A stretch of DNA of 64,000 nucleotides from Bacteroidota bacterium. GTDB taxonomy: Bacteria; Bacteroidota; Ignavibacteria; Kapaibacteriales; UBA2268. Shown here piece after piece: positions 9,100 to 58,104 of this stretch. Made by a program: the position numbers and the translations under genes. Within the stretch, counting starts at the first letter, position 1. Every line of letters starts with the position of its first letter. The DNA is taken from positions 7,522 to 71,521 of the forward strand of contig JAJRTW010000129.1 of assembly GCA_024278075.1 (NCBI GenBank), in the 5' to 3' direction. Under the pieces are notes generated by a model that ran no database searches, was not told the DNA's origin, and saw only the letters and a list, made by a program, of their open reading frames with translations.

Positions 9100-9132
9100 A
9101 ACTTATCCAAAGTTTCAAACTTTGGATAAGTT
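9100..9132. repeat. 33-bp palindrome AACTTATCCAAAGTTT-C-AAACTTTGGATAAGTT (copy 2 of 3), 36 bp upstream of the YD/CTD gene start
   Basis: Exact inverted arms. Same family as 2322-2354 and 10728-10760. Confidence 0.7.
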
Positions 9133-9168: not shown

Positions 9169-10704
9169 ATGAAAACACGTATTACCACACTCGCTATTCT
9201 CTTTGTCATATTTAACATTATCCCCTCCAATGCTATTGACGGACAAGCACGAGCCAAACCGGGGCACATTCCATTTCCCGGAATGAATGAACAGCAAGAA
9301 CTATTTCCGTCCGGACTTGGAGAAATGAACGAAGACGGTGCGGTAAGATTTATGAAGATGGGCGATGGGGTTCAAAGCAATCCGGGTTATCTTGTTGAAA
9401 GTGTAAGAGTGTATTCATTGGTTGATAGCAATACTAAATACATATACGCTTACAATGAAAGCAATCAAATATTAACTGAAACATCCGAAGGATGGGAAAA
9501 CGGTGCATGGGTGAATTATGAAAGAATAACCAACACTTATGATTCCGATGGTAATCTCCTTACTAATTCACAGCAAAGATGGGAAAACGGTGCATGGGTG
9601 AATTATGAAAGAAGAACCAACACATACGACGAGAATAGTAATTTATTAACATGGTTATACGAATTAAAAATTAGCGAAAAGTGGGTGGAATTAATAAAAT
9701 ACACCTACACATACGACGAGAATAACAATATGTTGACATGGCTACAACAAAGCGGTATTGATGATGAATGGGTAAATGTTTTCAGATTTTCCCATACATA
9801 CGACGAGAATAACAATATATTGACATTGCAGAGAGAGGACTGGAAAAACGAGGCATGGCTAATATACATGAGATATATAAACACCTACGACTCTGAAGGC
9901 AATTTAATTACAAAAATATTTTTACAATGGGAAAATGAAGAATGGCATGATTATTCCCGAAGCACCTACGACTATGATGATGAAGGCAAACAGCTGTCAT
10001 GGGTTAAAGCAACCTGGAAAAATGAAGAGTGGGTGGATTTTAGCAGAGAAATTAACACTTACGACATTAACGGCAATCTGATACTATGGACATCTCAAAA
10101 TCTGCAGAATGAAGAATGGGTGGGTTTTAGGCAGGAAACAAACACCTACGATACCGATGGCAATCTAAGAACATCTATATATCAAAGAATAAGAAACTAT
10201 GAATGGGTCAATGATTGGAGAAAAACTTACACGTACAACACCGACGGCAATTTAATAGTATGGTCATATAGTCTTTGGCAAAACGAAGAATGGGCAGATA
10301 ATGGATTCTATTTATCTTTTGAAGACTCCTATGGAAATTCTTTTGGTAACTATTACGGTTTCAGCATAGGAATTATATGGAGGAGTGCTACTTCTGTCGA
10401 GGATGAATCGGATGACAACTTCTCCGTAACGTCTTTCCCCAATCCGTTCTCCGGTTCCACTACAATAAATTATACTCTTGACAATCCCGCCCGGGTTCGT
10501 ATTAATATTTATGACAATCTCGGAATTAAAATAACTTCTTTGATTGATGAATATCAATCCGCCGGCGAACATCAGGCGATATTCAATGCAATAAAAACAG
10601 GCAATCGCCTAAAAACAGGCAATCGCCTGTCAGCCGGAATGTATTACTATACTGTTCAAATAAATAATCAATTTGAACAAGGGAAATTATTGCTGGTGAA
10701 ATAA
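9169..10704 (+). CDS. Secreted YD-repeat-like protein with T9SS CTD
   Basis: About 12 degenerate repeats W(E/K)N(G/E)xWVxxxRxTNTYDxxGNLLT (YD-like). C-terminus FPNPFSGSTTINYTL...GMYYYTVQI. In-frame 18-bp tandem duplication KTGNRLKTGNRL inside the CTD. Confidence 0.6.
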   Translation: MKTRITTLAILFVIFNIIPSNAIDGQARAKPGHIPFPGMNEQQELFPSGLGEMNEDGAVRFMKMGDGVQSNPGYLVESVRVYSLVDSNTKYIYAYNESNQILTETSEGWENGAWVNYERITNTYDSDGNLLTNSQQRWENGAWVNYERRTNTYDENSNLLTWLYELKISEKWVELIKYTYTYDENNNMLTWLQQSGIDDEWVNVFRFSHTYDENNNILTLQREDWKNEAWLIYMRYINTYDSEGNLITKIFLQWENEEWHDYSRSTYDYDDEGKQLSWVKATWKNEEWVDFSREINTYDINGNLILWTSQNLQNEEWVGFRQETNTYDTDGNLRTSIYQRIRNYEWVNDWRKTYTYNTDGNLIVWSYSLWQNEEWADNGFYLSFEDSYGNSFGNYYGFSIGIIWRSATSVEDESDDNFSVTSFPNPFSGSTTINYTLDNPARVRINIYDNLGIKITSLIDEYQSAGEHQAIFNAIKTGNRLKTGNRLSAGMYYYTVQINNQFEQGKLLLVK

Positions 10705-10727: not shown

Positions 10728-10760
10728 AACTTATCCAAAGTTTCAAACTTTGGACAAGTT
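10728..10760. repeat. 33-bp palindrome (copy 3 of 3, one mismatch) immediately 3' of the YD/CTD gene
   Basis: AACTTATCCAAAGTTT-C-AAACTTTGGACAAGTT. Preceded by partial AAACTTAT repeats. Confidence 0.65.
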
Positions 10761-11518: not shown

Positions 11519-11880
11519 CACTGTCCGGTGAAAAATGGGAGACTCTCTGAATATAATCCTAATATGCAAGTTGTGTTCTATAATATGATTAATCATATCG
11601 TATGATATATGATGCTGTCATTCCGAGCTTGCAAGGAATCCAGTATTTATGGCTACAACCAAGTATTTAATCCCAATACAGTTCATTTAACAACAATCTG
11701 ATTTTATTTCGTATTTTGTTTTAGTCATGTGGCTTATTCAATATTGTCAACTGTTGTGTCATTCGTACTATGTCATTGCCGTGACTACGAAGAAGCAGCG
11801 AAGCTCAAACGGGGATCCATTATTCCATGCACTATCTAACTATAAAAAGATGGATTCCGGATCAAGTCCGGAATGACAAC
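11519..11880. mobile_element. MITE-like composite element (left TIR CACTGTCCGGTGAAAAATGGGAG; GTCATTCCGAGCTTGCAAGGAATCC and GGATTCCGGATCAAGTCCGGAATGACA modules)
   Basis: Same module set as the other family members. No ORF. Confidence 0.5.
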
Positions 11881-12029
11881 TATAATGATCTGTCATAATT
11901 AGATTAACAAGCCATGAACCAAATATTAAGTGAACAGTATTGGTATTAACCCTCATTCTCTTTTACCACGAGCTAAAGCACGTGGCTATTGAAAAATATA
12001 ACATTAGATTGTATCCCTAACCTAATTCC

Positions 12030-13202
12030 CTAATTGTATTCGGGCAATGTATGTTCCCTACCCTTATTCTGCTCTTTTAAGTAATCCATCAGCGGGGCGA
12101 AATAATCAACCATCGGTTTGGCGCTCATATCCGAGCCGATGCTGGTTTGCAGCAATTCCCTCCAATCGACAGAAGCACCGGGCTTCATAATATCATAGAG
12201 GAATTTGCCGGTTTCCTTGCTGCCCCAGTAATTCGTAGAATGAGGGTCTTGCTTCAATATGTTCTTGGCGATATAATCATGGAACTGGAACAAAAGTACA
12301 TAGGAAATTGCATAGTCGTAATACTGTGCGGGGTCGTTGTTGATGTGTGTTTTCGAAGTGGCATCGCAATACTCCTCCCCGCGCTCTGCCGGAGGTACTA
12401 TCCCCTGATATTCTAATTTCAAATTCCACCATTTCTTGTTGAATTGCCCGGCATCCAGATTATTCGAATATAATTCCCACTCGAAATCAGTCATCACTCC
12501 TGCACCCCATGGGATAAAGACAATATATTCGAGAGCTTCTTTGAGCAATGTCATAGTTTCATCGGTTTTCGCATTTTCGTCGATAAGGCCAAGCCCGGTG
12601 AGGAATGGCTTCTGCAGGGAGGCAAGGCCGAGCAGGCTGCCGATTGCTTCGTGATAGCCCCTGTTGGCTCCGGTGCGAAGGACTATCGGGACATCTGGGT
12701 TTGTGTAGGCATCGAAATAATATATATGGCCGAGTTCGTGCAGAGTGGTTGCCCACCAGCGGGTGTTGTTGACAATACTCATCAGTGAACGCAGGTCGTT
12801 GTTCAGGTCGATATGCCAGGCCGAGGCATGATTGTTCTTCTTATAGTCCGCATCATCGGGAAGCGGATAGAGGCTCGACAGCTCGTAGAAAGAATGTGGC
12901 AGCGAATCCAGCCCGAGGCTCACATAGAACCTTTCGCCTTCCTTGACTATCCAGTTGCCGGGTTTTTCTTTCAATACTTCATCAAGGTTCATACCCTCGA
13001 CATTCACTAAGGCCGTCCAGTCCTGCCCCCACCTGTTGGGCATCCAGTGCGCCGGCAGCATATCCGGCACTTCCTTGCCATATTTTTCTGCCAATGTATA
13101 TCTTGCCCAGGTGTGCAATTCACGATAAAGCGGCCAGATGTCTTTAATCATACTCTGGCAAACCGCCCTCATTTCTTCAACTGTCATGCCATATTCAGAC
13201 AC
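12030..13202 (-). CDS. Peptidyl-dipeptidase A (ACE-like, MEROPS M2) catalytic portion, C-terminal 390 aa of a split gene
   Basis: HEXXH zinc motif TLHELGHIYY, GANRGYHEAIG and KWWNLKLEYQGIVPP align residue-by-residue with the ACE C-domain. Starts at GTG directly after an in-frame TAA. Confidence 0.75.
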   Translation of the reverse strand: MSEYGMTVEEMRAVCQSMIKDIWPLYRELHTWARYTLAEKYGKEVPDMLPAHWMPNRWGQDWTALVNVEGMNLDEVLKEKPGNWIVKEGERFYVSLGLDSLPHSFYELSSLYPLPDDADYKKNNHASAWHIDLNNDLRSLMSIVNNTRWWATTLHELGHIYYFDAYTNPDVPIVLRTGANRGYHEAIGSLLGLASLQKPFLTGLGLIDENAKTDETMTLLKEALEYIVFIPWGAGVMTDFEWELYSNNLDAGQFNKKWWNLKLEYQGIVPPAERGEEYCDATSKTHINNDPAQYYDYAISYVLLFQFHDYIAKNILKQDPHSTNYWGSKETGKFLYDIMKPGASVDWRELLQTSIGSDMSAKPMVDYFAPLMDYLKEQNKGREHTLPEYN

Positions 13203-13844
13203 TTAATAGGCGAAGAAATCGGAGTAATCCAAAGCCTGAACCGAAGCGTTCCTCAAGTGCCGAAGATTCTGCAATCCCTCTTTTAGGCCCTTACCCACTT
13301 CCTTGGACGCCTCCCATGCCTTCAATCTTTCCGTTAGGTCGGACGATTCGTCGAGGATTTTGTCGATGTCGTTGGTGGAAACCGGTTTGCCGTCAATCTG
13401 AAAATCAAATCCGAATAAGTCCTTGGTCTGTTTCGTATCCGCCTTGATTTTTTCCTTCACAACAGAATCAGCCGTAGCCGGGTTTCTTCCGGCGGTGTAA
13501 ATGATAGCGTCTAATTGCCTGGCCTGCAGGCCGGTTAATTTATTCTTATCGGCAAGGAAACCCTTAGCGCTTGTAATATTGTCGATACTGCCGGTGAATT
13601 TGGCATATTCTTCATTAGCTTTTTCGGCTAATTGGGCGGTTATGGTATCGCCTTCGATAATTTTAGTATTTAGCAGCCACTCCGCTTCGGAGGATTTTGT
13701 AACTAATTTCTGGATTTCAGCATTATATCCGTCCAGATAAGCCTGCACGGAATCCCTTAATTGGGAATAGTCTTCGGCGGGCTGTTCTTGTTTGCCGCAG
13801 GAAATTAGTGTGGCCAGGAGAATAAGAGTCAGGATTTTTTTCAT
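13203..13844 (-). CDS. N-terminal 213 aa of the same M2 peptidase (lipoprotein signal), terminated by in-frame TAA at 13203-13205
   Basis: Lipobox LISCGK. LKAWEASKEVGK...LRNASVQALDYSDFFAY matches the ACE N-terminal lid region. Same frame as, and contiguous with, 12030-13202. Confidence 0.65.
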   Translation of the reverse strand: MKKILTLILLATLISCGKQEQPAEDYSQLRDSVQAYLDGYNAEIQKLVTKSSEAEWLLNTKIIEGDTITAQLAEKANEEYAKFTGSIDNITSAKGFLADKNKLTGLQARQLDAIIYTAGRNPATADSVVKEKIKADTKQTKDLFGFDFQIDGKPVSTNDIDKILDESSDLTERLKAWEASKEVGKGLKEGLQNLRHLRNASVQALDYSDFFAY

Positions 13845-14118: not shown

Positions 14119-14395
14119 GTGACTCAACAGAAAGATTATACTCTAAAGTTTGATCGTCACTGGGAACTTCTTCTCCATCCGCAATAAGGTCATCAATATA
14201 AATCCCAATGGCCTCTCTGGCCATATCAATAGATTCATCTATAGTATCTCCAAAAGTAACACAACCGGGGAGGGATGGAACAATTACGGTATAGCCGCCT
14301 TCGGGTTCTTTTCTGAGTATGATCCTCTTTCTGAGTATGATCCGGGAATTAAGAATCTTCATGGTTTTCTTCTTCGGGTAAATTAATTGATTCAA
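14111..14395 (-). CDS. hicB: HicB-family antitoxin (UPF0150)
   Basis: GGYTVIVPSLPGCVTFGDTIDESIDMAREAIGIYIDDL. In-frame 18-bp tandem duplication RIILRKRIILRK near the N-terminus. Confidence 0.7.
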   Translation of the reverse strand: MNQLIYPKKKTMKILNSRIILRKRIILRKEPEGGYTVIVPSLPGCVTFGDTIDESIDMAREAIGIYIDDLIADGEEVPSDDQTLEYNLSVESHA

Positions 14396-14430
14396 GAGAA
14401 TGCAAATATATTAATAAAATAATATATTTG

Positions 14431-14720
14431 GTCACAAGTATCCGGTTAAAAAGCAGTAAATAAGTTTAAATCATCGATTATTACTGCATATTAGTCTATA
14501 TTGTGCTATTTTTGATACGATTCGTAAATTAGTGAAATATAATATTAAAGCGCGTCATTCCGGACTTGTTGAGCTTGCGAAATCCCGCTATCGGGAATCC
14601 GGAATCCATCTCAATATGGCCACATAGCCCGTGAATACTGGATTCTGAAACGAGTTCAGAATGACAAGTCATAATATCCAGGTACATATTCTGAGCGTTT
14701 CTCTTTTTTTAACCGGACAC
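14431..14720. mobile_element. MITE-like composite element, complete (outer TIRs GTCACAAGTATCCGGTTAAAAAGCAG / TTTTTTTAACCGGACAC; inner GTCATTCCGGA...CAGAATGAC modules)
   Basis: Imperfect terminal inverted repeats plus nested hairpin modules. Non-coding. Its right end supplies a false upstream ATG for the next gene. Confidence 0.6.
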
Positions 14721-17611: not shown

Positions 17612-17657
17612 AAAATTCCAGTGTCAGAGTTAAACAATTTCGTTTTTATAATATTTT

Positions 17658-17969
17658 GTCACAAGTGTCCGGTTAAAAAGCAGCCAATTGGTGATAATCA
17701 TAGTAATAAGCACCCTTTTGCCCTATATTGTGCTATAGTGGATGCAATTTCGGATTTAGCGAGATTTTATATTAAAGCGTGTCATTCCGGACTTGATCCG
17801 GAATCCATCTTTATTATAGCGAATAATATAATGAATACTGGATTCCCGCTGGAGTTTATCCTGAGCCCTTCGACTTCGCTCAGGATAAACTGCCGAAGGG
17901 CAGGAATGACACGTGACAGATATTAAGGGTATATTCATCAAGGCTCTCATTTTTTTACCAGACAGTACT
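17658..17969. mobile_element. MITE-like composite element, complete (TIRs GTCACAAGTGTCCGGTTAAAAAGCAG / CTCATTTTTTTACCAGACAGTACT)
   Basis: Inner TGTCATTCCGGACTTGATCCGGAATCCA hairpin and TTTATCCTGAGCCCTTCGACTTCGCTCAGGATAAAC hairpin, closed by GGAATGACACGTGACAG. Confidence 0.6.
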
Positions 17970-18090
17970 GATATTTTGTAATAAATTATTCCCTATTAAT
18001 GTACTACCCAGCCGCATACAGCTTGGTATCGATTTTGATTATCATTATAACAAGCAGGCAGGCCACTGGGAATAAAACCCGAGAGTGGGA

Positions 18091-24891: not shown

Positions 24892-24952
24892 TCGAAATAA
24901 TTGTTGAGCCAAGTGGTTAATAAATAATGTTATTGATGAATAATAGTTTTAG

Positions 24953-25086
24953 TGAATAATAGAATTAAAGAAAATAATAGAATTAAAGAAAATAATAGAA
25001 TTAAAGAAAATAATAGAATTAAAGAAAATAATAGAATTAAAGAAAATAATAGAATTAAAGAAAATAATAGAATTAAAGAAAATAAT
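24953..25086. repeat. 18-bp tandem repeat AGAATTAAAGAAAATAAT x ~7.5 in the porU-porV spacer
   Basis: Perfect head-to-tail copies. It generates the spurious LILLFS-repeat ORF on the opposite strand. Confidence 0.8.
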
Positions 25087-25372
25087 AATAAATAATAATA
25101 AAGATAAGAGTGCATAGGCTGGTGGAAATGAACAAGAACTGAGTATCGGGTTTTTGCCATCACCGCCGAATTAAAGTGCGGCCCGGCTAATGCCTGCATT
25201 TTCATTCAATATATAATTCCATTTAAACTTTGCATGGCTATCAGCCGCAGCATGTGAAAATGGTCGAAAATTTATTTAAATTATTTGGTGATTAGAAAAG
25301 TTTATTAGCAATTGAAAAAATATTAGAAATATAAATTCGTAATAATATAAATGTTATAATAAGGAATGAATT

Positions 25373-26500
25373 ATGTTTATGAGGAAGCTAACGATGAAAA
25401 TGATATTAAAGGTGTGCCCGGCAATTGTGATAATTGCATTGTTGCTGCCATGCAATAATCTCTTTGGCCAGGCCGGAGGCTCTGCAGTGCCGTTCATATC
25501 GATTTCGCCGGACGCCAGGGCCAGTGGAATGGGCGAGGTAGGCACAGCCATAGCCGATGATATAAATGCCATATATTGGAATCCCGGTGGATTGGCGTTT
25601 TTGGATTATTTTGATTACGGCGATGATTTTGACATGGATGAAGAATTAATACCGTATCGTCAGGTTGCTTTATCTTACTCGCTTTGGCTGCCACAGTTTA
25701 ATGCCGACCTGTTTTACAGCTATCTAACAGTTGGCCAGTATTTTGAAGATTTAGACGGCACGGTTGCCTTCAACTTTATCTTTATGAATCTTGGCGAGTT
25801 TACTAAGACAAGCGCACAGGGCACAGTATTGGGGAAGTTCATGTCCAATGAATTCGCCGCGGGGTTGTCTTATGGCACTATTATCGCTCCGGATTTGGGG
25901 GTTGGCTTTCAATTAAAATATATTCAGTCTAATTTGACACCAACATCAGTGCAGGGCCAGGATGCAGGCACCGGCATTAGTGCTGCTTTCGATATTGGAG
26001 TGCTGTGGAAACCGCAGAGCCTGGATTTTCTTGATATTGAAGACCGGTTGGCGCTGGGATTGAACCTTCAGAATATTGGCCCGAAGATGACCTATATAAA
26101 AGAATCCGACCCATTGCCCTCCACTCTCCGCATGGGCATTGCTTTTGATGTGGTTAAGGATGAATTCAATGAGCTCACATTTGCTTTTGATTTTGCTAAA
26201 TTATTAGTTAAACGCGATTCATTGGGATCTGACCCTTTGCCGAAATCGCTTGTTTCCTCATGGGAAAACCGGGGGGCGGAATTGTCTTTCGGGATGGAAT
26301 ACTGGTACGAACACGTAGTTGCTTTAAGAGCAGGATATTTCACGGAACCGGCGGTGCTGGGCAATAGGAAATATTATAATTTCGGGGCCGGAGTGCGCTA
26401 TGATATATTCAGATTAGACTTTAGCTTTATCAATACAATAGAAGAAAATCACCCGCTGGCAAATACTATGCGATTCTCGATGCTGATTGATTGGGAATAG
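25373..26500 (+). CDS. porV: PorV/LptO-family T9SS outer-membrane shuttle protein
   Basis: N-terminal signature AVPFISISPDARASGMGEVGTAIADDINAIYWNPGGLAF is typical of PorV. About 375 aa, beta-barrel-like, and adjacent to the porU homologue. Confidence 0.7.
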   Translation: MFMRKLTMKMILKVCPAIVIIALLLPCNNLFGQAGGSAVPFISISPDARASGMGEVGTAIADDINAIYWNPGGLAFLDYFDYGDDFDMDEELIPYRQVALSYSLWLPQFNADLFYSYLTVGQYFEDLDGTVAFNFIFMNLGEFTKTSAQGTVLGKFMSNEFAAGLSYGTIIAPDLGVGFQLKYIQSNLTPTSVQGQDAGTGISAAFDIGVLWKPQSLDFLDIEDRLALGLNLQNIGPKMTYIKESDPLPSTLRMGIAFDVVKDEFNELTFAFDFAKLLVKRDSLGSDPLPKSLVSSWENRGAELSFGMEYWYEHVVALRAGYFTEPAVLGNRKYYNFGAGVRYDIFRLDFSFINTIEENHPLANTMRFSMLIDWE

Positions 26501-26525
26501 TTAGATGATTACTAAATTCAGAAAA

Positions 26526-26547
26526 GCCGGTCCGACCGGCTTTTTTT
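26526..26547 (+). terminator. Rho-independent terminator after porV (GCCGG-TCCGA-CCGGC followed by T7)
   Basis: GC-rich 5-bp stem, 5-nt loop, then TTTTTTT. Confidence 0.65.
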
Positions 26548-26667
26548 GTTGGGATATAAACTCGTCATCTGTTTAATATTGAATAGCTTAGCCCGCCAAC
26601 CCATAGGCTGGTGAAGCTAAATATTGTTTGGATATTCAAATAAACAGTCATAACTTTGTAATTCAAA

Positions 26668-26738
26668 GGTGCTATAGCCAAGTGGTTAGGCAACGGTCTG
26701 CAAAACCGTGAACGCCGGTTCGAATCCGGCTGGCACCT
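26668..26738 (+). tRNA. tRNA-Cys (anticodon GCA)
   Basis: 71-nt cloverleaf. Acceptor GGTGCTA/TGGCACC, anticodon loop CTGCAAA, T arm GCCGG-TTCGAAT-CCGGC. Confidence 0.85.
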
Positions 26739-26862
26739 CGATTTATTAATATAAATGAACTACTCCGCCGCAAGCAGCGGGGTATCGATTTAGATTGTAG
26801 TTTTTAAAAGCGTGGCAAGCCACGGAGAATTAAACCCACGAGTGGGATTAACTAAGGGAATA

Positions 26863-27426
26863 ATGGCAAAAACACAAGATCTAAAGAACGGGTCTATCAT
26901 CAAATTCAATGGCGATAACTGTGTTATCATCTCGAATGCTCATATCAAACCAGGCAAAGGCCCGGCGTATATTCAGGTTAAAATGCGGAACCTCCGCAGT
27001 GGCAAACATTATGAACACCGGTTTAATACTGGTGCTACCATCGAATTAGTGCGTGTGGAAAGGCACGCCTACCAGTATTTATACAGAGACGGCACCAGCC
27101 TGATTTTTATGAATAAATCGAATTATGACCAAATCCCGGTTGATAAGGATGCGATTACGGGCAATATCGGATTTATGAAAGAAAATGAAGATGTCCAGAT
27201 TGCCTTCGAGGGCGATATCGTTCTTAGTGTAGACCTGCCCCAGCATGTTAACATAAGAATAACCCAAACCGATCCGGGGTATAAGGGTGACACCGCCACC
27301 AACGTATTGAAAGCCGCAACTCTTGAGACCGGTGCGGTTGTGCAGGTGCCGCTGTTTATTAACGAAGGTGATATGATAAGAATTGACACTAAAACCGGCG
27401 GGTATATTGAAAGGATCAAAGGATGA
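26863..27426 (+). CDS. efp: Elongation factor P
   Basis: MAKTQDLKNGSIIKF...KPGKGPAYIQVKMRNLRSG. Start moved to the conserved MAKT, 17 codons into the six-frame ORF. Confidence 0.9.
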   Translation: MAKTQDLKNGSIIKFNGDNCVIISNAHIKPGKGPAYIQVKMRNLRSGKHYEHRFNTGATIELVRVERHAYQYLYRDGTSLIFMNKSNYDQIPVDKDAITGNIGFMKENEDVQIAFEGDIVLSVDLPQHVNIRITQTDPGYKGDTATNVLKAATLETGAVVQVPLFINEGDMIRIDTKTGGYIERIKG

Positions 27427-27524
27427 TCTTTGCATAATCGCTCAAAGCCAATACGCGTATCGGCATTTATTTATTTGCATATTTATTTATTTGCATATTT
27501 ATTAATTAAGGTTTCGAGGAAGAA

Positions 27525-28043
27525 ATGGATCTCAATTATCTGAAAAAAATTATAAAAATCTTTGATGACAGCACGGCTACGAATCTTGAAATCAAAGAAG
27601 AAGGTGTTAATATCAAGATTTCGAATGCTCAGCCGGCCAATACTAGCGGGCAGGTGCCTTATCCCTTTTTCCCGATGCAAACCGCAGCTGCTCCGGTTCA
27701 GGGTAATCAAATTCAGCAATCGGCTCCGGAAACCTCTGCGCCGGTTCGGGATATGGTTAGTTCTGATGTTCAATCAGGAACCTCGGCACCTGATGCAGGG
27801 AATTATTACGAAATGAATTCGCCGATTGTTGGCACTTTCTATCGCTCGCCATCGCCGGATACCGATCCCTTCGTTGAAGTCGGGACGAAGATCAAGTCAG
27901 GGGATACTCTCTGCATCGTCGAAGCCATGAAACTTATGAACGAAATCGAAAGCGATATATCCGGTAATATTGAAAAAATATTAATTGAGAATGGACAGCC
28001 GGTTGAATATAATCAACCGCTATTCATTATCAAACCTGAATAG
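27525..28043 (+). CDS. accB: Acetyl-CoA carboxylase biotin carboxyl carrier protein
   Basis: Biotinyl-lysine motif [10 protein letters not shown] and a Pro/Ala-rich linker. Confidence 0.85.
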
Positions 28044-28169
28044 GTTGCACCTGAATAGGTTGCACCTGAATAGGTTGCACCTGAATAGGTTGCACCTGAA
28101 TAGGTTGCACCTGAATGGGTTGCACCTGAATGGGTTGCACCTGAATAGGTTGCACCTGAATGGGCGGCA
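28035..28169. repeat. 15-bp tandem repeat CCTGAATAGGTTGCA x9, whose first unit is the last three codons plus stop of accB
   Basis: accB ends ...AAA CCT GAA TAG. The unit is then reiterated 9 times, with two ATGGG variants, up to 65 bp before accC. Confidence 0.8.
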
Positions 28170-28233
28170 TTAGATTAATCGCTGCACCAGAATAGAATAT
28201 ATCAGAATAATCCTTAATAAATAAGAATAATAA

Positions 28234-29577
28234 ATGATAAAGAAAGTATTAATTGCGAACCGAGGCGAAATAGCCTTACGTATCATTCGTGCCTGCCATG
28301 AATTAGGGCTGCGAACCGTTGCCGTATATTCGGAAGCTGACAAGAGATCGCTCCATGTAAGATTTGCAAATGAAGCCGTTTGCATCGGCCCGGCTTCGAG
28401 CCTCGACAGTTATTTGAAAATAACATCAATCATATCTGCGGCCGAACTTACCAACGCCGATGCTATCCATCCCGGCTATGGCTTTTTGGCAGAGAATGCG
28501 GATTTTGTGAAGATTTGCCAGGATCACGACCTTACTTTTATTGGCCCATCGGCAAATGCCATCAGGAATATGGGGCATAAATCCAAGGCGAAAGAGACTA
28601 TGCGGCGGGCAGGTGTGCCGGTGGTGCCGGGCAGCGACGGGATTGTCAATTCAATTCCCGAAGCCAGCAAAATAGCCGCCGAAATTGGCTATCCGGTGAT
28701 GCTGAAAGCTGTTGCAGGCGGTGGTGGCAAGGGTATGAGGCTCGTTGACGAACCATCCGGGCTCGAGAAAGCCTTTCTGCTTGCAAGCAATGAAGCCGAA
28801 ACCTTTTTTAATAATCCTGACCTCTACTTAGAAAAACTCGTGGTAGGCTCACGGCACATTGAAGTGCAGGTGATTGGTGATAAATTCGGCAATATTATTC
28901 ACCTGAACGAAAGGGAATGCTCTATTCAGCGCCGCCATCAAAAATTAATTGAAGAAGCTCCTTCGCCGGTTGTATCTGAAAAGCTGAGGGCAACGATGGG
29001 CGAAGCTTCCGTCCTGGGGGCCAAAGCTGTAGATTATGTGGGGCCGGGGACAATCGAGTATCTTGTTGATGATAAAATGAATTTCTTCTTTATGGAGATG
29101 AACACTCGCATCCAGGTGGAGCATCCCGTTACCGAGCAGTCGCTTGGCATTGACTTGATTAAAGAGCAAATCAGGGTGGCTTCCGGCGAGAGGCTGTCCC
29201 TAACCGTTTCTCCTCCGCTAATGCACTCGATTGAATGCAGGATTAATGCCGAGGACCCCGAGCATGGTTTCAGGCCGTCCCCCGGCAAAATCGAAAGCCT
29301 GCATTTCCCGGGCGGCAACGGCATTCGGCTGGATACTCATATTTACCAAAGTTATGAAATACCGCCATTCTATGATTCGCTGGTGGCTAAACTTATTTCT
29401 TATGCTCAAACACGGCTGGAGGCTATCGAGAAAATGAGGAATGCACTGGATGAGTTTGTTATCGAGGGCATTAAAACGACTATTCCGTTCCATCAGAAAA
29501 TGATGAGGAACAAAGACTTTATTGATGGCAATATTGATACGAAATATTTGGAAAGAAATGATTGGAAGAATATGTAG
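28234..29577 (+). CDS. accC: Acetyl-CoA carboxylase biotin carboxylase subunit
   Basis: [24 protein letters not shown]-grasp motifs and [14 protein letters not shown]. Confidence 0.95.
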
Positions 29578-29692
29578 GCATTTTTAGGAATTTAGGGAAT
29601 TAGGAGTATAATTATCCACGAACTAAAGCACGTGGCAATTGAATAACTAATAATAGCATGGCTAAATATATTACCTTTTCATAGGGATGCAA

Positions 29693-29985
29693 ACTAGTGT
29701 CGTGTCATGCATACTTTGACGAATTATTTGTTGGCTGTCATTGCGGAACTTGTTTCCAAATCCAGTATTCACGGCCTATTTGGCTATATTAAGATGGATT
29801 CCGGATCAAGTCCGGAATGACATAGTACAGTTGACATATCACTAGTGTCGTGTCATGCATACTTTGACGAATTATTTGTTGGCTGTCATTGCGGAACTTG
29901 TTTCCAAATCCAGTATTCACGGCCTATTTGGCTATATTAAGATGGATTTCGGATCAAGTCCGGAATGACATAGTACAGCTGACAC
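29693..29985. mobile_element. Two tandem 148-bp copies of a MITE-like module (…GGATTCCGGATCAAGTCCGGAATGACATAGTACAGTTGACA…)
   Basis: Copy 2 (29841-29985) repeats copy 1 with about 3 substitutions. Preceded by a CCACGAACTAAAGCACGTGG mini-palindrome that also occurs at 11963 and 60957. Confidence 0.6.
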
Positions 29986-30033
29986 ATCACTATAATCGAA
30001 TAAACGCTTTTGTAATAATCGGTGCTACTGATA

Positions 30034-30106
30034 ATAGATACGTATAATCACAATAGATACGTATAATCACAATAGATACGTATAATCACAATAGATACGT
30101 ATAATC
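30034..30106. repeat. 19-bp tandem repeat ATAGATACGTATAATCACA x3.8 immediately upstream of gcvH
   Basis: Perfect copies ending 11 bp before the gcvH ATG. Confidence 0.8.
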
Positions 30107-30117
30107 TATGTAAATTA

Positions 30118-30510
30118 ATGGAGAAGAGAATGAATTTCCCAGTTGACCTTAAATATACCGAAGACCACGAGTGGGTTAGGGTAGAAGGGAATATAGGCAC
30201 TATCGGCATCACCGGCCACGCCCAGGGCGAACTTGGCGATATTGTCTATATTGATATTCCTGACGAATCTGCCGAATTGTCTCTGGGCGACAGCTTCGGA
30301 ACCATCGAAGCCGTCAAGACCGTTGCGGATCTTTTCTCGCCGCTGTCGGGGAAAATTATCGAGGTTAACACCGGGCTAAATGACAATCCGGAAGTAGCTA
30401 ATAATGACCCCTACGGTGATGGTTGGATTGTTAAAATCGAATTTACCAATCCCGCCGAATTAGATAAGCTTCTGGACGTGAATTCCTATAAAGAATTAAT
30501 TGGCCAGTAA
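30118..30510 (+). CDS. gcvH: Glycine cleavage system H protein
   Basis: Lipoyl-lysine motif GTIEAVKTVADLFSPLSG. Confidence 0.9.
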   Translation: MEKRMNFPVDLKYTEDHEWVRVEGNIGTIGITGHAQGELGDIVYIDIPDESAELSLGDSFGTIEAVKTVADLFSPLSGKIIEVNTGLNDNPEVANNDPYGDGWIVKIEFTNPAELDKLLDVNSYKELIGQ

Positions 30511-30600
30511 TTATCCGGTAATTATCCGGCAACTATCCGGCAACTATCCGGCAGCTATCCGTATTCGGCAATAATGAATTGGCAATAATGAATTGGCAAT
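30507..30600. repeat. Short tandem repeats (TAATTATCCGG x2, CAACTATCCGG x3, CAATAATGAATTGG x2) beginning in the gcvH stop codon
   Basis: gcvH ends ...GGC CAG TAA TTATCCGG, after which the 11-bp unit is reiterated. Confidence 0.75.
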
Positions 30601-30830
30601 AAGTAGTGATGTGTCAGGCATACTATGACGGTTCATTTAAGTTGTCATTCTGAACCCTTCGGCAGTCTATCCTGAGCCCTTCGGCTTCGCTCAGGATAAA
30701 CTATGTCGAAGGACTCAGGATAAACTCCGTGAAGAATCCAGTATTCAAAGGCTATTAGGATGTATCAAAATGGATTCCGGATCAAGTCCGGAATGACATA
30801 GTACAGTTGACACGTCAGTAGTATAAATCA
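30600..30830. mobile_element. MITE-like element (GTCATTCTGAAC…TATCCTGAGCCCTTCGGCTTCGCTCAGGATAAAC…GGATTCCGGATCAAGTCCGGAATGACATAGTACAGTTGACACGTCAG)
   Basis: Same hairpin modules as the other family members. Confidence 0.5.
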
Positions 30831-40253: not shown

Positions 40254-43010
40254 TTATTCCGGATCCATCCAGACGGTTTCCTGCATGGATTTGCATTTGC
40301 CGTATTCGAAACTGAATTCCTCGTCGGCATACCCGTCCTTTTCAACGACAACAGTGTAAGTCTTTGGGGCGCAAAGCTCCTCACGAACATAATAGCCTTC
40401 GTTGTTTGATTCACCCTCGGCTATCACATCGTCGCCGTCGTATATCTTCACGCTTGCACCGCTCAAATAGTCTTCGCTATCCTTATCCCTGATAATTAAT
40501 TTCAGCCTGCCGGTGCAGCATTCACCGTCATCGGCTTCAAGTTCCTTTGTAATTTCCAGAGTTTCATCGCAGTCAAGCTCGGCTTCGAATTCAATATTGT
40601 TATAATCCTCGTGCATAATATCAATACCATAGCCACCTTCGCAGAGGCCGTCAAAGATTGCCACACCGTTGCTAATCTCAGCAGTTTCAACCAGCTTGCC
40701 ACCTTTCCACAGCTTAACCTTGCCGCCGTTTATCGCCTCGCCATCGGCATTTTTCGGGTATATTTTCATCACCCCATTGCAGCATTCCCGCTCTTCGATA
40801 GTCACCTCTTTTTCGATAGTTTCATCGCAATCAAACTCAACTTCAAACTCACCCTCTTCGCGGCCTTGATACAGTACGTCCACTCGGTATGCACCCTTGC
40901 ACATTCCGTCGAACATAGCAGCGCCGCCTTTCAATTCCACTTTCTCGACCAATTTACCATCCCGGAATATCCTAACATAGCCGCCGTTAATGCTGTTGCC
41001 TTCGCTGTCCTTTACATTTACTTTCAATATACCTTTACAGCATTCCTGTTCCGAAATAATCACCTCTCTTTCGATAGTTTCGTTGCAATCGAACTCAACT
41101 TCAAACTCACCCTCTTCGCGGCCTTGATACAGTACGTCCACTCGGTATGCACCCTTGCACATTCCGTCGAACATAGCAGCGCTGCCTTTCAATTCCACTT
41201 TCTCGACCAATTTACCATCCCGGAATATCCTAACATAGCCGCCGTTAATGCTGGTGCCTTCGCTGTCCTTTACATTTACTTTCAATATGCCTTTGCAGCA
41301 TTCATCTTTGGATGTCATTTCCTTAACGAACTCAACTTCGCCATCGCATCCGATTTCGAATTCAAATTCAATCACGCCATAGCCCTCGCCGGAGATTCGT
41401 ATATCGTAGCTGCCTTCGCAGACACCGTCAAATACAACGCCATCCTCACTTTTTTGAATTAATTTTTCAATCATAGCCGGATGCTGGCGCAGTTCGATTT
41501 TTGCCCCGATAATCACTTCGCCGGTTTCACTATCCTTTGCAACTACACGAACCAGCCCATGGCAACATTCCATGTCTCTGGTCATTTTCTTATGGATTTC
41601 CTTTTCGCCATTACAATCCAGTTCTACTTCGAATATCATTTCTTCGTAGTCTTCGCTTTGGATTTTCACGACATAGCCGCCTTCGCAAAGCTCTTCGAAA
41701 ACGGCAAAGCTATCTTCAATTTCCTGAACGGCAATCTCTTCGCCATCTTGTATTAATACAACTCTTGCATTCTTGATTCTATCGCCTGTCTTGGCATCCT
41801 TCGGGATCACATAAATCTTGCCATCGCAGCAATCATCGCCTTCAAGTTCTTTTACGATTGGCTTCTGCTCGTTGCATCCAAGCTCGACTTCAAACTCGAT
41901 ATTCTTATAATTTTCGTGCGAAATCTTAATACTATAAACACCTTCGCACAGGCCGGAGAAATCAATTCCCTCGGCAGTAGTAATTCCGGATAGCACCAAA
42001 TCACCGTCAAGCCATACATCTACTTTCGCGCCAATAATTGGGTCTGCCGTTTCGGCATCCTGCGGCGTTATTATCATCACCCCATTGCAACAACTTGTGT
42101 CCTTTTCAGTCATAATAATAGTATAGTCAACTGTTTGGTCACAATCAAGCTCTACGGTAAATTCAACGGTTTCATAACCGGAGTTTCTCATCTTCACCGA
42201 GTAGACGCCCTCGCACAGACTGTCGAGCACGGCTTGCCCATTTTCGCTTCTAACTTCGCGGGTATCTTCGCTTCCGTCCCTTTTTGCGGTAATTAGGACA
42301 TCATTGATAACCGCATTTGTTAAGCTGTCCCGCGGCGTAATTGTTATTGAACCATCGCAGCATGAATCCTCGGGAGTACTCATAGGCTTCATCACAATCG
42401 GCAATAAGGGGTCGTCGCACTCGATTATGTTAACTTCCCGCTCAACGACTTTGAAACCATCTTTCGACAGCCTCAAAACGTATTCACCTTCGCATACATT
42501 TTCGAACACTAATTTGCCATCGCTGTTTGTAAACTCCTTGCGGTTTAGCTTGCTGCCGCGCGTTAGCCGCACCTTAACATCATCAATAGGCGACTCATCC
42601 ACAGATGAAGTGACTGCCACCCCGATTTCTCCGCAGCAATCCTCACGGTGCTGAATTTTCACCGGAATCTTTTCGGCGCCTTTATTCTCTTCTTTCAGAG
42701 TTAACAGAGAAAGAGTGGCCGTACGGAAGTCGCCGTGCAGAATGTTCAAATTAATATCCAACAGGCTTTCAGGAATATTCTTCAGTAAGAAGTTCCCGTC
42801 TTCATCTGTGGTATCACGGTCTAATATTTTGCCAGCTTTGTTTATGGCGTCGACAATTGCACCCGGAACTGATATGCCCTGTTCGTCAGAGATTATTCCG
42901 GATACTTCAATAGTGTTTTCAGGTGGCGTAACCGTTTCCTCGCAGGAGAAAAGCACTGTTAGTACGAAAATTGATAGAAATATCTTTACGGCTGTAATAG
43001 AAAATCTCAT
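40254..43010 (-). CDS. Cys-rich repetitive lipoprotein: about ten 86-aa modules (CarbopepD_reg / transthyretin-like fold suspected), each bounded by CCxG...CEG.Y...DC
   Basis: Lipoprotein signal LFSCEE. Modules such as ECCKGILKVNVKDSEG.SINGGYVRIFRDGKLVEKVELKG.AAMFDGMCKGAYRVDVLYQGREEGEFEVEFDC. Two adjacent modules are about 95% identical at the DNA level, with a period of about 258 bp (approximately 40790-41310). Confidence 0.5.
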   Translation of the reverse strand: MRFSITAVKIFLSIFVLTVLFSCEETVTPPENTIEVSGIISDEQGISVPGAIVDAINKAGKILDRDTTDEDGNFLLKNIPESLLDINLNILHGDFRTATLSLLTLKEENKGAEKIPVKIQHREDCCGEIGVAVTSSVDESPIDDVKVRLTRGSKLNRKEFTNSDGKLVFENVCEGEYVLRLSKDGFKVVEREVNIIECDDPLLPIVMKPMSTPEDSCCDGSITITPRDSLTNAVINDVLITAKRDGSEDTREVRSENGQAVLDSLCEGVYSVKMRNSGYETVEFTVELDCDQTVDYTIIMTEKDTSCCNGVMIITPQDAETADPIIGAKVDVWLDGDLVLSGITTAEGIDFSGLCEGVYSIKISHENYKNIEFEVELGCNEQKPIVKELEGDDCCDGKIYVIPKDAKTGDRIKNARVVLIQDGEEIAVQEIEDSFAVFEELCEGGYVVKIQSEDYEEMIFEVELDCNGEKEIHKKMTRDMECCHGLVRVVAKDSETGEVIIGAKIELRQHPAMIEKLIQKSEDGVVFDGVCEGSYDIRISGEGYGVIEFEFEIGCDGEVEFVKEMTSKDECCKGILKVNVKDSEGTSINGGYVRIFRDGKLVEKVELKGSAAMFDGMCKGAYRVDVLYQGREEGEFEVEFDCNETIEREVIISEQECCKGILKVNVKDSEGNSINGGYVRIFRDGKLVEKVELKGGAAMFDGMCKGAYRVDVLYQGREEGEFEVEFDCDETIEKEVTIEERECCNGVMKIYPKNADGEAINGGKVKLWKGGKLVETAEISNGVAIFDGLCEGGYGIDIMHEDYNNIEFEAELDCDETLEITKELEADDGECCTGRLKLIIRDKDSEDYLSGASVKIYDGDDVIAEGESNNEGYYVREELCAPKTYTVVVEKDGYADEEFSFEYGKCKSMQETVWMDPE

Positions 43011-46621: not shown

Positions 46622-46724
46622 GCTGGGAAATACTAACTAAATTATTCTTGCTCAAAAAAAACTTTGCCAAATTGGGAAATAGCCTTAATTTTGAATTAGT
46701 AAAATTTCGATTCAATTTGAATAT

Positions 46725-47035
46725 CAGTAGCGTCCGGTTAAATAGCAGTCAAAAAGTGCGAATCGCTGATATTAGCTTCACTTTGACCTATTATATGTTG
46801 CATTAGGTGCGATTTTGGATATAACAAAAATAGTTGTTAAAGTATGTCATACCGGACCCCGATCCGGTATCCATCTTAAATATAGCAAATAGCCTATGAA
46901 TACTGGATTCCCGCTGGAGTTTATCCTGATCCCTTCGACTTCGCTCAGGGTAAACTGCCGAAGGGCAGGAATGACACGTAACAGTTATTAAGGGTATTTT
47001 CTGCATAACTCTCATTTTATTAACCGGACAGTAGT
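46725..47035. mobile_element. MITE-like composite element, complete (TIRs CAGTAGCGTCCGGTTAAATAGCAG / CTCATTTTATTAACCGGACAGTAGT), 17 bp upstream of tRNA-Ser
   Basis: Inner modules are nearly identical to the 17.6-kb copy (…TTTATCCTGATCCCTTCGACTTCGCTCAGGGTAAAC…GGAATGACACGTAACAG). Confidence 0.6.
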
Positions 47036-47051
47036 ATTTGAATATACCACC

Positions 47052-49002: not shown

Positions 49003-49040
49003 CCTGTTTATTGTAAACATTGCTCCGGGTATATCTTATT

Positions 49041-49306
49041 GTCAGTAGTGTCCGGTTAAAAAGCAGTGAATAATTGGTAATCACAGTTATAGCCTGTATT
49101 TTGCCTTAGATAACGCTGGTTTAGATACAATTTCGTATCATAGCAATTATAATAATATTACTTGCCATTCCGGACCCCGTCCGGAATCCATCTTAATATA
49201 GCCACATAGCACGTAAATAATGGATTCTGAAACGAGTTCCGCAATGACAAATCATAATTATTAGGTATAAATTAGGAACGCCTCTCATTTTTAACCGGAC
49301 ACTACT
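49041..49306. mobile_element. MITE-like composite element, complete (TIRs GTCAGTAGTGTCCGGTTAAAAAGCAG / CTCATTTTTAACCGGACACTACT)
   Basis: Inner GCCATTCCGGACCCCGTCCGGAATCCATCTTAATATAGCCACATAGC…GCAATGACA module. Confidence 0.6.
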
Positions 49307-52040: not shown

Positions 52041-52141
52041 TAGATATATAGCTAAGAGAAATATGTAATTGGCAGGGGTAATTCATTAATTGCCCCTATT
52101 ATTGCTATAGTGAAATCAGAGAAAACCCTCTAAATCTCCCT

Positions 52142-52384
52142 TTGAAAAGGGAGACTTTTAACCCCATTTACCAAGCGAGCTTGTTTCAAAGGGGGTGGTT
52201 CCGAAGGAACCGGGGGTTTCTAATTGAAGCCAGATATAGTGTTTGGTTTGTAGAAAATATTGGTATAGTAAAAACTCTACGGAAGCCGATTACTATTTCA
52301 GCGGCAGGTGAGACAGTGTCTACATTTCCTGGCGATCAATCAATTTTAATAGATCATAACGTTCCGGAGGAACCTTCTGAATAA
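52142..52384 (+). pseudogene. Silent duplicate of the C-terminal cassette of the 51189-52040 lipoprotein (gene fragment)
   Basis: ...LIEARYSVWFVENIGIVKT...IDHNVPEEPSE parallels ...LIEARYSVWFAEGIGIVKT...KDHNVPQAVQ. It lacks an N-terminal/signal region. Confidence 0.5.
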
Positions 52385-52783
52385 ATATTGTGCTAAGAGA
52401 AATATTTTTTGTAGGGGTAATTTGTGAATTGCCCCCATTATTGCTATAGTGAAATCAGAGAAAACCCTCTAAATCTCCCTTTGAAAAAGGGAGACTTTTA
52501 ACCCCATTTACCAAGCGAGCTTGTTTCAAAGGGGGTGGTTCCGAAGGAACCGGGGGTTTCTAATTGATTGGGATTCCCGCTCTACTGTCGCAATGACATA
52601 TTACAGTTGACACGCCGCTAATATATTAATCACGACAGTGAATGGAATACTATTATCCGCATGATCGAATTTTTCCCCGAGAGAAACAACCTGCCTTTTT
52701 AATTTCAATTTTTATTAATTTGAATAATTATCCCGTACATATTCGTTTAATAATTGATTTGACATTTTTTAATCCTCAATAAA

Positions 52784-57410: not shown

Positions 57411-57906
57411 TTGTCAAAAGTGCCGTCCTGATAATAAAGCGGCCAAATAGTAACAATCTCAGTAATAAGCCCCATTTTACCCTATATTGAGCTATTAAGG
57501 ATATATTTAGAAAATTGCGAAATATAATATTAAAGAGTGTCATACCGGACTTGTTGATCCCAATGAAATCCCGCATTGGGAAGTAATCCCGCTATCGTGG
57601 ATCCGTTATTCGAATTAAATCAAAACCCCCGGCATCTTCGGAACAATAGTTCCTTCGAAGCCATCCCCTTTGAAAAATGGGGTTTAAGAATCAAAGTCTC
57701 CCTTTCTCAAAGGGAGATTTAGAGGGTTTTCTTATTTTGCTGTGGCATCATAGCTTCATTTCCTTCTGCCTAACACTGTATTCCCGCAGAAGTTTATCCT
57801 GAGTCCTTCGACTTCGTTCAGGATAGACTGTCGAAGGGCGGGAATGACACGTGAAAGCTATTAAGGATATATTTAGAAAGACACTAATTTTATTCCCGGA
57901 CACTGC
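57411..57906. mobile_element. Large (~500 bp) MITE-like composite element carrying extra CCCCTTTGAAAAATGGGG / TCTCCCTTTCTCAAAGGGAGA hairpin modules
   Basis: Degenerate left TIR, right TIR TTTTATTCCCGGACACTGC. Inner GTCATACCGGACTTG…GGGAATGACACGTGAAAG. It shares the CTCCCTTTGAAAAGGGAGA module with 52130-52560. Confidence 0.55.
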
Positions 57907-58104
57907 TTATTTATCTTAATCACTGTGAAATTATGCTCAAAATCAAAATTAATAAATATTTCATTGATATTATTATCTTAAATATAATTATTCTTCGTCA
58001 TTTTCTTAGTTTTTTGTTATTATGAATATTGTTAATATGGATATTTTGTTTTTCAATAATTATTTTAATCTATCTATTTACCATAATTACTAATACTATT
58101 TATT

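Follow-up and report, generated by a model that had tools for sequence, protein, structure and literature searches.

The window analyzed here, a 64-kb stretch of contig JAJRTW010000129.1, carries accB, the gene for the biotin carboxyl carrier protein (BCCP), within an efp-accB-accC-gcvH operon. The last codons and the stop of accB form the start of a 15-bp tandem array that runs into the spacer before accC. This array is genuine and of a common type of tandem repeat, and slippage during DNA copying is its most likely origin. Similar arrays lie in the neighboring spacers, and nothing indicates that any of them alters a protein. The arrays are probably neutral slipped-strand minisatellites of the variable number tandem repeat (VNTR) type, each specific to its locus, in the spacers of an operon that was formerly compact. 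They are found in an uncultured relative of Kapaibacteria/Ignavibacteria equipped with a type IX secretion system (T9SS).

The accB gene end and its relatives

accB (27525-28043, plus strand; 172 aa; NCBIfam TIGR00531 BCCP, E=1e-47) ends in AAA CCT GAA TAG, with the stop codon at 28041-28043. The array consists of nine units of CCTGAATAGGTTGCA at 28035-28169 on the plus strand. Unit 1 begins within the gene, and its start is the final 9 nt, CCT GAA TAG. Sequence reading, Tandem Repeats Finder (TRF) and a pattern search agree on the nine copies that an initial annotation of this DNA had described. In the pattern search, the spacing is exactly 15 nt and units 1 to 9 carry 0, 0, 0, 0, 0, 1, 1, 0 and 3 mismatches, while TRF gives 8.5 copies of a 15-bp unit (98% identity). 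The annotation also gave every unit a TAG of its own. This is true of the exact units (1-5 and 8), but units 6 and 7, which differ by TAG>TGG, and the degenerate unit 9 read TGG at that place. Minisatellites are head-to-tail direct repeats with units of 10-100 bp and without spacers, and the accB array has this form. Shuffled sequence gives 1.85 matches to CCTGAATAGGTTGCA at up to 3 mismatches, and none of the shuffles reached 11. A pattern search of the 64-kb window at the same tolerance found no other copy of this 15-mer, or of the 18-mer from the porU-porV spacer, beyond chance. A relic unit, GCTGCACCAGAATAG, is read directly on the plus strand at 28181-28195 and is 13/15 identical to the accB unit in the GTTGCACCTGAATAG register. 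It shows the decay of an older array at its distal end.

The AccB C-terminus is IKP[D/E] in 19 homologues from Kapaibacteria/Ignavibacteria-like genomes and IKPE in the window. Judging from these homologues, this end is ancestral. CCT GAA TAG is therefore native to the gene, and the repeat is a copy of the gene end, not the reverse. The gcvH end, LIGQ*, is likewise common to the window and the related locus L081. Both observations support the proposal of the initial annotation that the repeats were derived from the genes' own stop regions.

Loci of three related species were taken from GCA_054033535.1 (L081 and L084), Logan SRR29092999 (L083) and GCA_964613245.1 (L086 and L091). The relationship among the window, L081 and L083 is a trichotomy; their nucleotide identity is 81-84% in efp and 77-78% in accB. 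In L083, accB ends in AAA CCT GAT TAG and is followed by AAACTTGATTAAGAT, ACACCTGATTAAGTT and ACACCTGATTAATTC. The gene end and these downstream copies make up four 15-bp units in the same register, which are mutually diverged and carry their own GAT codon. L081 has a single copy, AAACCCGATTGAGTTAAAC, at the accB end, flanked by an AAAC direct repeat 15 nt apart; AAAC..AAAC at 15-nt spacing is found in both L081 and L083. The number of 15-bp copies at the accB end is thus nine in the window, four in L083 and one in L081. The arrays of the window and L083 may have one origin or two, as both fit the trichotomy.

The window has an accB-accC spacer of 190 nt, compared with 104 nt for L081, 69 nt for L083 and a median of 27 nt for 76 other bacteria. 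Among 82 accB loci, a repeat overlaps the accB stop only in the window and L083. The gene order is kept in L087 (AccB 55% identical; accB-accC spacer of 29 nt) and L088 (56%; 11 nt), and there is no repeat in the accB-accC spacer of either. The closest AccB proteins in GTDB representative genomes are ~50% identical, and these loci served as outgroup controls. Exact look-ups of the window AccB, GcvH and P0001, the entry for the window's own AccB in the protein collection, matched no further strain of the species. Metagenomes were scanned with a degenerate anchor at the accB end and, separately, with an anchor at the accC start; both scans gave 0 matches.

Direct repeats such as the 4-nt AAAC, whose copies lie one unit apart, are well-known starting points for slippage. 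The coding end of gcvH, TTA ATT GGC CAG TAA TT, gives TAAT(T) twice, 11 nt apart, and the array that follows has an 11-bp unit. Local derivation is therefore accompanied by microhomology at exactly the unit spacing in both genes, AAAC at 15 nt for accB (L081 and L083) and TAAT at 11 nt for gcvH, which fits the slipped-strand expansion that the initial annotation suggested. From such features, we infer slippage as the mechanism and neutrality as the state of the arrays. The process may have been slipped-strand mispairing or unequal exchange between sister copies. A pre-existing short direct repeat around the stop (AAAC...AAAC, 15 nt apart, at accB and TAAT...TAAT, 11 nt apart, at gcvH) would permit one slippage, and the duplicate would hold the last codons and the stop. 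With two copies present, further slippage would expand and homogenize the array. Because unit 1 retains the intact end of the open reading frame (ORF) and its stop, the downstream copies are non-coding and should be close to neutral.

Duplications inside ORFs would persist only if they are in frame, as 18-bp duplications are. The lengths observed within ORFs are 18 nt for the clean duplications and 87 and 258 nt for domain repeats, all multiples of three, and the intergenic units measure 11, 14, 15, 16, 18 and 19 nt. Such lengths are what one would predict if duplications formed throughout the DNA and persisted only where harmless. Loss of one stop would append X-VAPE to AccB, as the initial annotation pointed out. 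Its suggestion of a role resembling phase variation finds no support: changes in copy number can switch no ORF, TAG serves here as a normal stop codon, and the corresponding position in relatives is TAA or TGA.

The density of repeats was counted as TRF arrays with a period of 7-60 and a score of at least 50. There are 1.7 arrays per 10 kb in the window and 9.2 in L081, compared with a median of 0 (mean 0.67) at 73 orthologous accB loci of other bacteria. These counts support a repeat-prone lineage, in agreement with the general proneness to expansion claimed earlier. Criteria developed for Borg elements, at least 3 perfect units and at least 50 nt, are satisfied by three window arrays (beginning at 24955, 28034 and 30033), all within 5.2 kb. 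By the same criteria, 842 kb of other bacteria and 46 kb from the relatives contain 0 arrays. All window arrays with at least 2.5 copies lie in 24.9-30.6 kb, and the remaining 58 kb has 0. The local hotspot of perfect arrays is real: within 24900-30610, arrays are present in 5/6 consecutive spacers of porU-porV-efp-accB-accC-gcvH.

Other arrays and features of the window

The plus-strand genes across 20.8-30.5 kb encode PorU, PorV, a tRNA, elongation factor P (EF-P), AccB, AccC and GcvH, assigned through strong NCBIfam matches and, for the tRNA, with Rfam. The gcvH gene (NCBIfam GcvH) lies at 30118-30510 on the plus strand, with a TAA stop at 30508-30510. This TAA is also the first triplet of the 11-bp array, which is composed of TAATTATCCGG x2, CAACTATCCGG x2 and CAGCTATCCG x1 at 30508-30562 on the plus strand (TRF, 11 bp x 4.5, 92%). 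The initial annotation was right about the presence and the starting point of this array, but it counted TAATTATCCGG three times and the unit occurs twice in total. A perfect 14-bp array, GGCAATAATGAATT x2.6, follows at 30567-30602 (plus strand, TRF); read after CAGCTATCCG, it is CAATAATGAATTGG x2.6.

Just upstream of gcvH is a perfect 19-bp array, AATAGATACGTATAATCAC x3.9, at 30033-30106 (plus strand, TRF). A public gene call for GcvH, P0241, is 126 aa long, 100% identical and begins at the second ATG, 30130, so the distance from the array to the likely start is 23 nt and not 11 nt. The porU-porV spacer contains an 18-bp array, AATAATAGAATTAAAGAA x7.4, at 24955-25087 (plus strand, TRF) in which all copies are perfect, and degenerate 18-bp copies lie beside it at 24917-24962. 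The 19-bp and 18-bp arrays had both been reported in the initial annotation. A 16-bp array, ATTTATTTATTTGCAT x2.7, occupies 27465-27507 in the efp-accB spacer (plus strand, TRF).

accC (biotin carboxylase; NCBIfam) is located at 28234-29577 on the plus strand and ends in a TAG stop at 29575-29577. Like accB and gcvH, it has a repeat that starts from its stop. In the window, a degenerate run of TAGG-periodic copies, TAGGCATTTT TAGGAATT TAGGGAAT TAGGAG, spans 29575-29606. In L091, TAGGCAGTAGGGGAT x1.9 at 131-159 is a perfect 15-bp duplication starting at the accC stop TAG. L081 has a 15-bp duplication, TAGGCGGTAGGAGTT / TAGGCGGTAGATTAG, starting at the accC stop at 11965-11994. L081 also has a perfect 14-bp x3.4 array beginning at the last base of the efp stop and a single ATTTATTTG copy in the efp-accB spacer, where the window has its 16-bp array. 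In the remaining spacers, the arrays of the window show no relationship to those of L081, L084 or L091, which points to fast turnover.

Two in-frame 18-bp duplications within ORFs were noted earlier and are present. One encodes KTGNRL x2 in a T9SS C-terminal-domain protein (about 10592-10629, plus strand; TRF and translation). The other encodes RIILRK x2 in a HicB-family antitoxin ORF (14309-14344, minus strand), and its copies are identical at 16/18 nt. Repeats are also seen at the protein level. A 29-aa (87-nt) unit occurs ~7 times in a T9SS C-terminal-domain protein at 9488-10251, and a 918-aa protein has 86-aa (258-nt) CarboxypepD_reg-like domain repeats at 40634-41303.

The accC-gcvH spacer holds a 148-bp composite hairpin element resembling a miniature inverted-repeat transposable element (MITE). 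It is present as a tandem duplicate with 98% identity at 29693-29992 (plus strand; TRF; families D7, D8, D9 and D18), and a third related copy lies at ~30620-30825. Modular hairpin elements that are MITE-like or resemble repetitive extragenic palindromic (REP) sequences (TGTCATTCCGGACTTGATCCGGAATCCATCTT, AGTTTATCCTGAGCCCTTCGACTTCGCTCAGGATAAACT and GAATCCAGTATTCA) fill intergenic DNA in both orientations and are common to related species. Their sites in the window are 11832-11890, 14420-14660, 17640-17990, 29693-29992, 30620-30825, 46700-47050, 49030-49250 and 57480-57920. In the relatives, they are found at 9850-9930 and 12570-12680 of L081 and at 4650-4760 of L084. A 33-nt perfect palindrome, AACTTGTCCAAAGTTTGAAACTTTGGACAAGTT, is present in three copies (2322-2354, 9100-9132 and 10728-10760) beside T9SS C-terminal-domain cargo genes; these palindromes look like terminators or regulatory hairpins. 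An interspersed repeat containing AGAAAACCCTCTAAATCTCCCTTTGAAAAGGG occurs at 52057-52151, 52396-52490 and 57693-57732 in direct and inverted orientation, with a 40-nt arm that is 98% complementary. At 12030-13844 on the minus strand, a Peptidase_M2 gene resembling angiotensin-converting enzyme (ACE) consists of two adjoining ORFs in one frame, separated by a single TAA at 13203-13205. This split gene may be a pseudogene or reflect a sequencing error.

Four spurious ORFs with start codons run through the arrays: 24952-25095 (plus), 24930-25205 (minus), 28030-28170 (minus) and 27985-28173 (plus). Their peptides are (NNRIKE)7, (LILLFS)n, M-PP-(IQVQP)n and (LNRLH)n. The (NNRIKE)7 and M-PP-(IQVQP)n ORFs exist because their units are divisible by three. 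Gene callers may annotate such ORFs. The locus gives two warnings for annotation: ORFs made of repeats, such as (NNRIKE)7 and (IQVQP)n, can be spurious, as they are here, and the copy numbers of arrays in metagenome-assembled genomes (MAGs) may be lower bounds.

Stop-codon placement and rival explanations

To examine placement, all tandem duplications in the spacers of 113 kb of DNA from this clade were collected, with periods of 7-25 and an identity of 80% or more. The null model was uniform placement in the present spacer, with overlap of the 3' end allowed by less than one unit. It replaced an initial placement test (TRF score of at least 40; 5 vs 3.2 expected) in which one hit fell on a dubious tRNA-overlapping ORF and the gcvH array was missed. 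Among the 63 arrays of this clade, some of them homologous, 8 overlap a stop where 3.77 are expected (P=0.017), and 7 lie within 25 nt of a start where 8.3 are expected (P=0.77). In 33 outgroup loci (362 kb, 84 arrays), there is no excess of stop overlap (6 vs 6.9 expected, P=0.77), and these loci calibrate the placement model. The special mechanism of 3'-end anchoring proposed in the initial annotation receives no support apart from a slight statistical signal: the excess in this clade is modest, the outgroups have none, and short ancestral spacers can account for it.

Several observations weigh against simple neutral slippage. The excess of stop overlap in this clade is ~2-fold (8 vs 3.8, P=0.017). 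Four of the six arrays with at least 3.5 copies begin at a stop, a threshold that was picked after seeing the data. Moreover, the perfect arrays are strongly clustered, whereas slippage acting uniformly would not be expected to cluster them. For the accB-accC spacer, the folding energy is -67.7 kcal/mol (z=-4.2 vs shuffles), so an effect on the mRNA is possible, and the 15-bp accB unit is predicted to form a 7-bp bulged hairpin. A mechanistic or selective preference for stop regions is possible as well. The stop excess is not robust, since some events are homologous and some are weak two-copy cases, and since the null spacers are themselves inflated by arrays and MITE-like insertions. If ancestral spacers were 11-50 nt, as those of relatives are, and their last ~15 nt were needed for initiation of the next gene, a new duplication of 11-19 nt would very often include the stop. 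The apparent anchoring would then have two causes, ancestral spacers of ~10-50 nt and selection against duplications that break ORFs, and we infer that the excess stems mainly from this ancestral compactness and selection.

If the arrays were functional cis-elements, they would serve as RNA spacers that tune coupling, stability or stoichiometry in the efp-accB-accC-gcvH transcript, or as arrays of DNA binding sites. A regulatory role of this kind has been proposed for the intergenic tandem repeats of Borgs. Here, the accB stop of a second species, L083, also bears a 15-bp array, the accC stop is followed by TAGG-periodic copies in three species, and the arrays are concentrated in one operon of housekeeping genes that are likely highly expressed. 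Yet the accB-accC spacer folds better than shuffled sequence because its unit holds a small bulged hairpin, and good folding is expected of any tandem array with a partly palindromic unit. The 15-mer is the only unit to form a hairpin; the 18-mer folds at 0 kcal/mol and the remaining arrays lack structure, which leaves no RNA or DNA structure common to all of them. Units from different spacers show no sequence relationship, nor do units from one spacer in different species. In L083 the copies are in decay, L081 lost the array or never had it, and more distant relatives manage with spacers of 11-29 nt. No Rfam family matches any array, either at gathering thresholds or at E up to 1, and promoter-like and terminator-like matches in the arrays are not above those in shuffled sequence. 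A cis-regulatory function is accordingly unlikely. Two specific candidates were rejected. Iterons of a replication origin are 17-22 bp repeats beside a rep gene, DnaA boxes or an AT-rich unwinding element; here, DnaA-box matches are no more frequent than chance and form no cluster, and there is no rep gene in the neighborhood. For an operator of BirA or another regulator, suggested by the near-palindrome GGTTGCACC, the motif is not conserved in relatives. We know of no BirA regulon that includes accBC.

It is highly unlikely that the arrays or their copy numbers are assembly artefacts. The window does come from a MAG, on an 89-kb NCBI contig. The longest arrays, 133 and 135 nt, are near the maximum k-mer resolution of short-read assemblers, and the true copy numbers may for this reason be higher. 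Independent assemblies from other samples (L083, L081 and L091), however, have homologous or analogous arrays at the same sites, and the accB-accC spacer of L081 (NCBI) is identical to that of L082 (Logan). Internal variant units and flanking relic copies are also not made by collapse or expansion in assembly. Insertion of a mobile family of interspersed repeats that targets gene boundaries, similar to MITEs or to mycobacterial interspersed repetitive units (MIRUs), is also highly improbable. MIRUs, reportedly described by Supply et al. in 1997, are said to be tandem units in operon spacers with ORFs overlapping boundary codons. A published account likewise places them as tandem units in operon spacers, with ORFs that overlap the flanking start or stop codons (PMC12548453), and the spacers of the window are rich in interspersed hairpin modules. 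Elsewhere in the 64 kb, however, the 15-mer and the 18-mer are absent, even with 3 mismatches allowed. The ancestral end of the gene itself makes up unit 1, the units are 11-19 nt and not 46-101 nt, and each spacer has a different unit.

Translation of the accB array has also been considered, either by TAG suppression or recoding to give AccB an (X-VAPE)n tail, or as an antisense or alternative-frame repeat peptide. The 15-bp unit is divisible by 3 and four of six frames are open. Read-through would yield E-X-VAPE-X-VAPE..., ending at the TAA at 28176-28178, and a 46-aa antisense ORF with an ATG, M-PP-(IQVQP)n, lies at 28170-28030. Open frames are, however, expected of any short unit divisible by 3, and no homologues or domains were found for such peptides. 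Read-through would have to pass six successive TAGs. TAG ends 13/46 genes of the window and is thus an ordinary stop, while TAA stands in the repeated units of L083 and accB of L081 ends in TGA. Recoding is therefore very unlikely, to the point of being negligible.

There is also a bolder reading. A Borg-like tandem-repeat process may be locally and recently active in the lineage, starting preferentially at the stops of a highly expressed operon. Behind it would stand either a feature of replication or repair peculiar to the lineage, or selection favoring repeat spacers as a means of tuning the expression of efp, accB, accC and gcvH. This is given a low probability, and neutral slippage within a formerly compact operon is preferred. 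The value of the locus is mainly descriptive. It shows the stepwise gain of long spacers by a compact operon, from microhomology to a stop-including duplication, expansion and decay, and all three states of spacer growth are preserved across three related species. If the hotspot and the stop preference hold genome-wide, the lineage would be tractable for asking what makes replicons repeat-prone.

Relation to known repeat systems

Phase-variable contingency loci, as in Neisseria, Haemophilus and Campylobacter, share slippage-prone tracts with the present arrays. In those systems, the tracts are simple sequence repeats and lie in promoters or 5' coding regions. Here, they lie after the stop or upstream of the ribosome-binding region, where gain or loss of copies can shift no reading frame, and nothing suggests an effect on promoter spacing.

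MIRUs are spacer units of co-transcribed genes that overlap boundary codons and leave expression undisturbed (PMC12548453). Similarly, accB unit 1 overlaps the stop of its gene, and at gcvH the 11-bp array begins with the stop. MIRUs differ in being one interspersed and apparently mobile family with units of 46-101 bp that contain short ORFs. Since the array units of the window are unique to their locus, they do not belong to one family in this sense.

The Borg tandem repeats were described by Schoelmerich et al. (2023, PLoS Biol, PMC9879509). As in Borgs, the perfect units are unique to each locus, units within ORFs are divisible by three, partial repeats flank the arrays, and array turnover between relatives is fast. 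With 3 perfect arrays of 50 nt or more in 64 kb, the local density is of the same order as that of the 460 arrays in 10 Borgs, once Borg genome sizes are taken into account. Borgs are, however, archaeal extrachromosomal elements, and the window is part of a bacterial chromosome with housekeeping genes (efp, accBC, gcvH, murC and tRNAs). Strong enrichment of adenine in the coding-strand units is typical of Borg-type repeats. The fraction of A is 0.67 in the 18-mer, 0.47 in the 19-mer, 0.43 in the 14-mer, 0.27 in the 15- and 11-mers and 0.25 in the 16-mer, against an intergenic baseline of 0.33. An A-bias is thus confined to the 18-, 19- and 14-mers and is not seen in the accB unit. The perfect arrays are also clustered within 5.2 kb of the 64 kb instead of being pervasive, and the relatives have few or no perfect arrays. 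The locus is a bacterial chromosomal counterpart to the perfect, gene-end-anchored repeats that have so far been highlighted in Borg elements.

VNTRs are the minisatellite class used for typing by multiple-locus VNTR analysis (MLVA). Bacterial VNTRs and minisatellites are attributed to slipped-strand mispairing by Zhou, Aertsen & Michiels (2014), as cited in PMC9879509. The present arrays agree with them in being head-to-tail direct repeats without spacers, with locally derived units of 11-19 bp that are mostly intergenic, and in having near-identical central copies and decayed edge copies. Copy number differs between related genomes (9, 4 and 1), a comparison made between species only. They differ in that perfect arrays are unusually concentrated in one operon region of 5-6 kb and that first units overlap stop codons. 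Overall, the arrays are best explained as a further case of this known minisatellite type.

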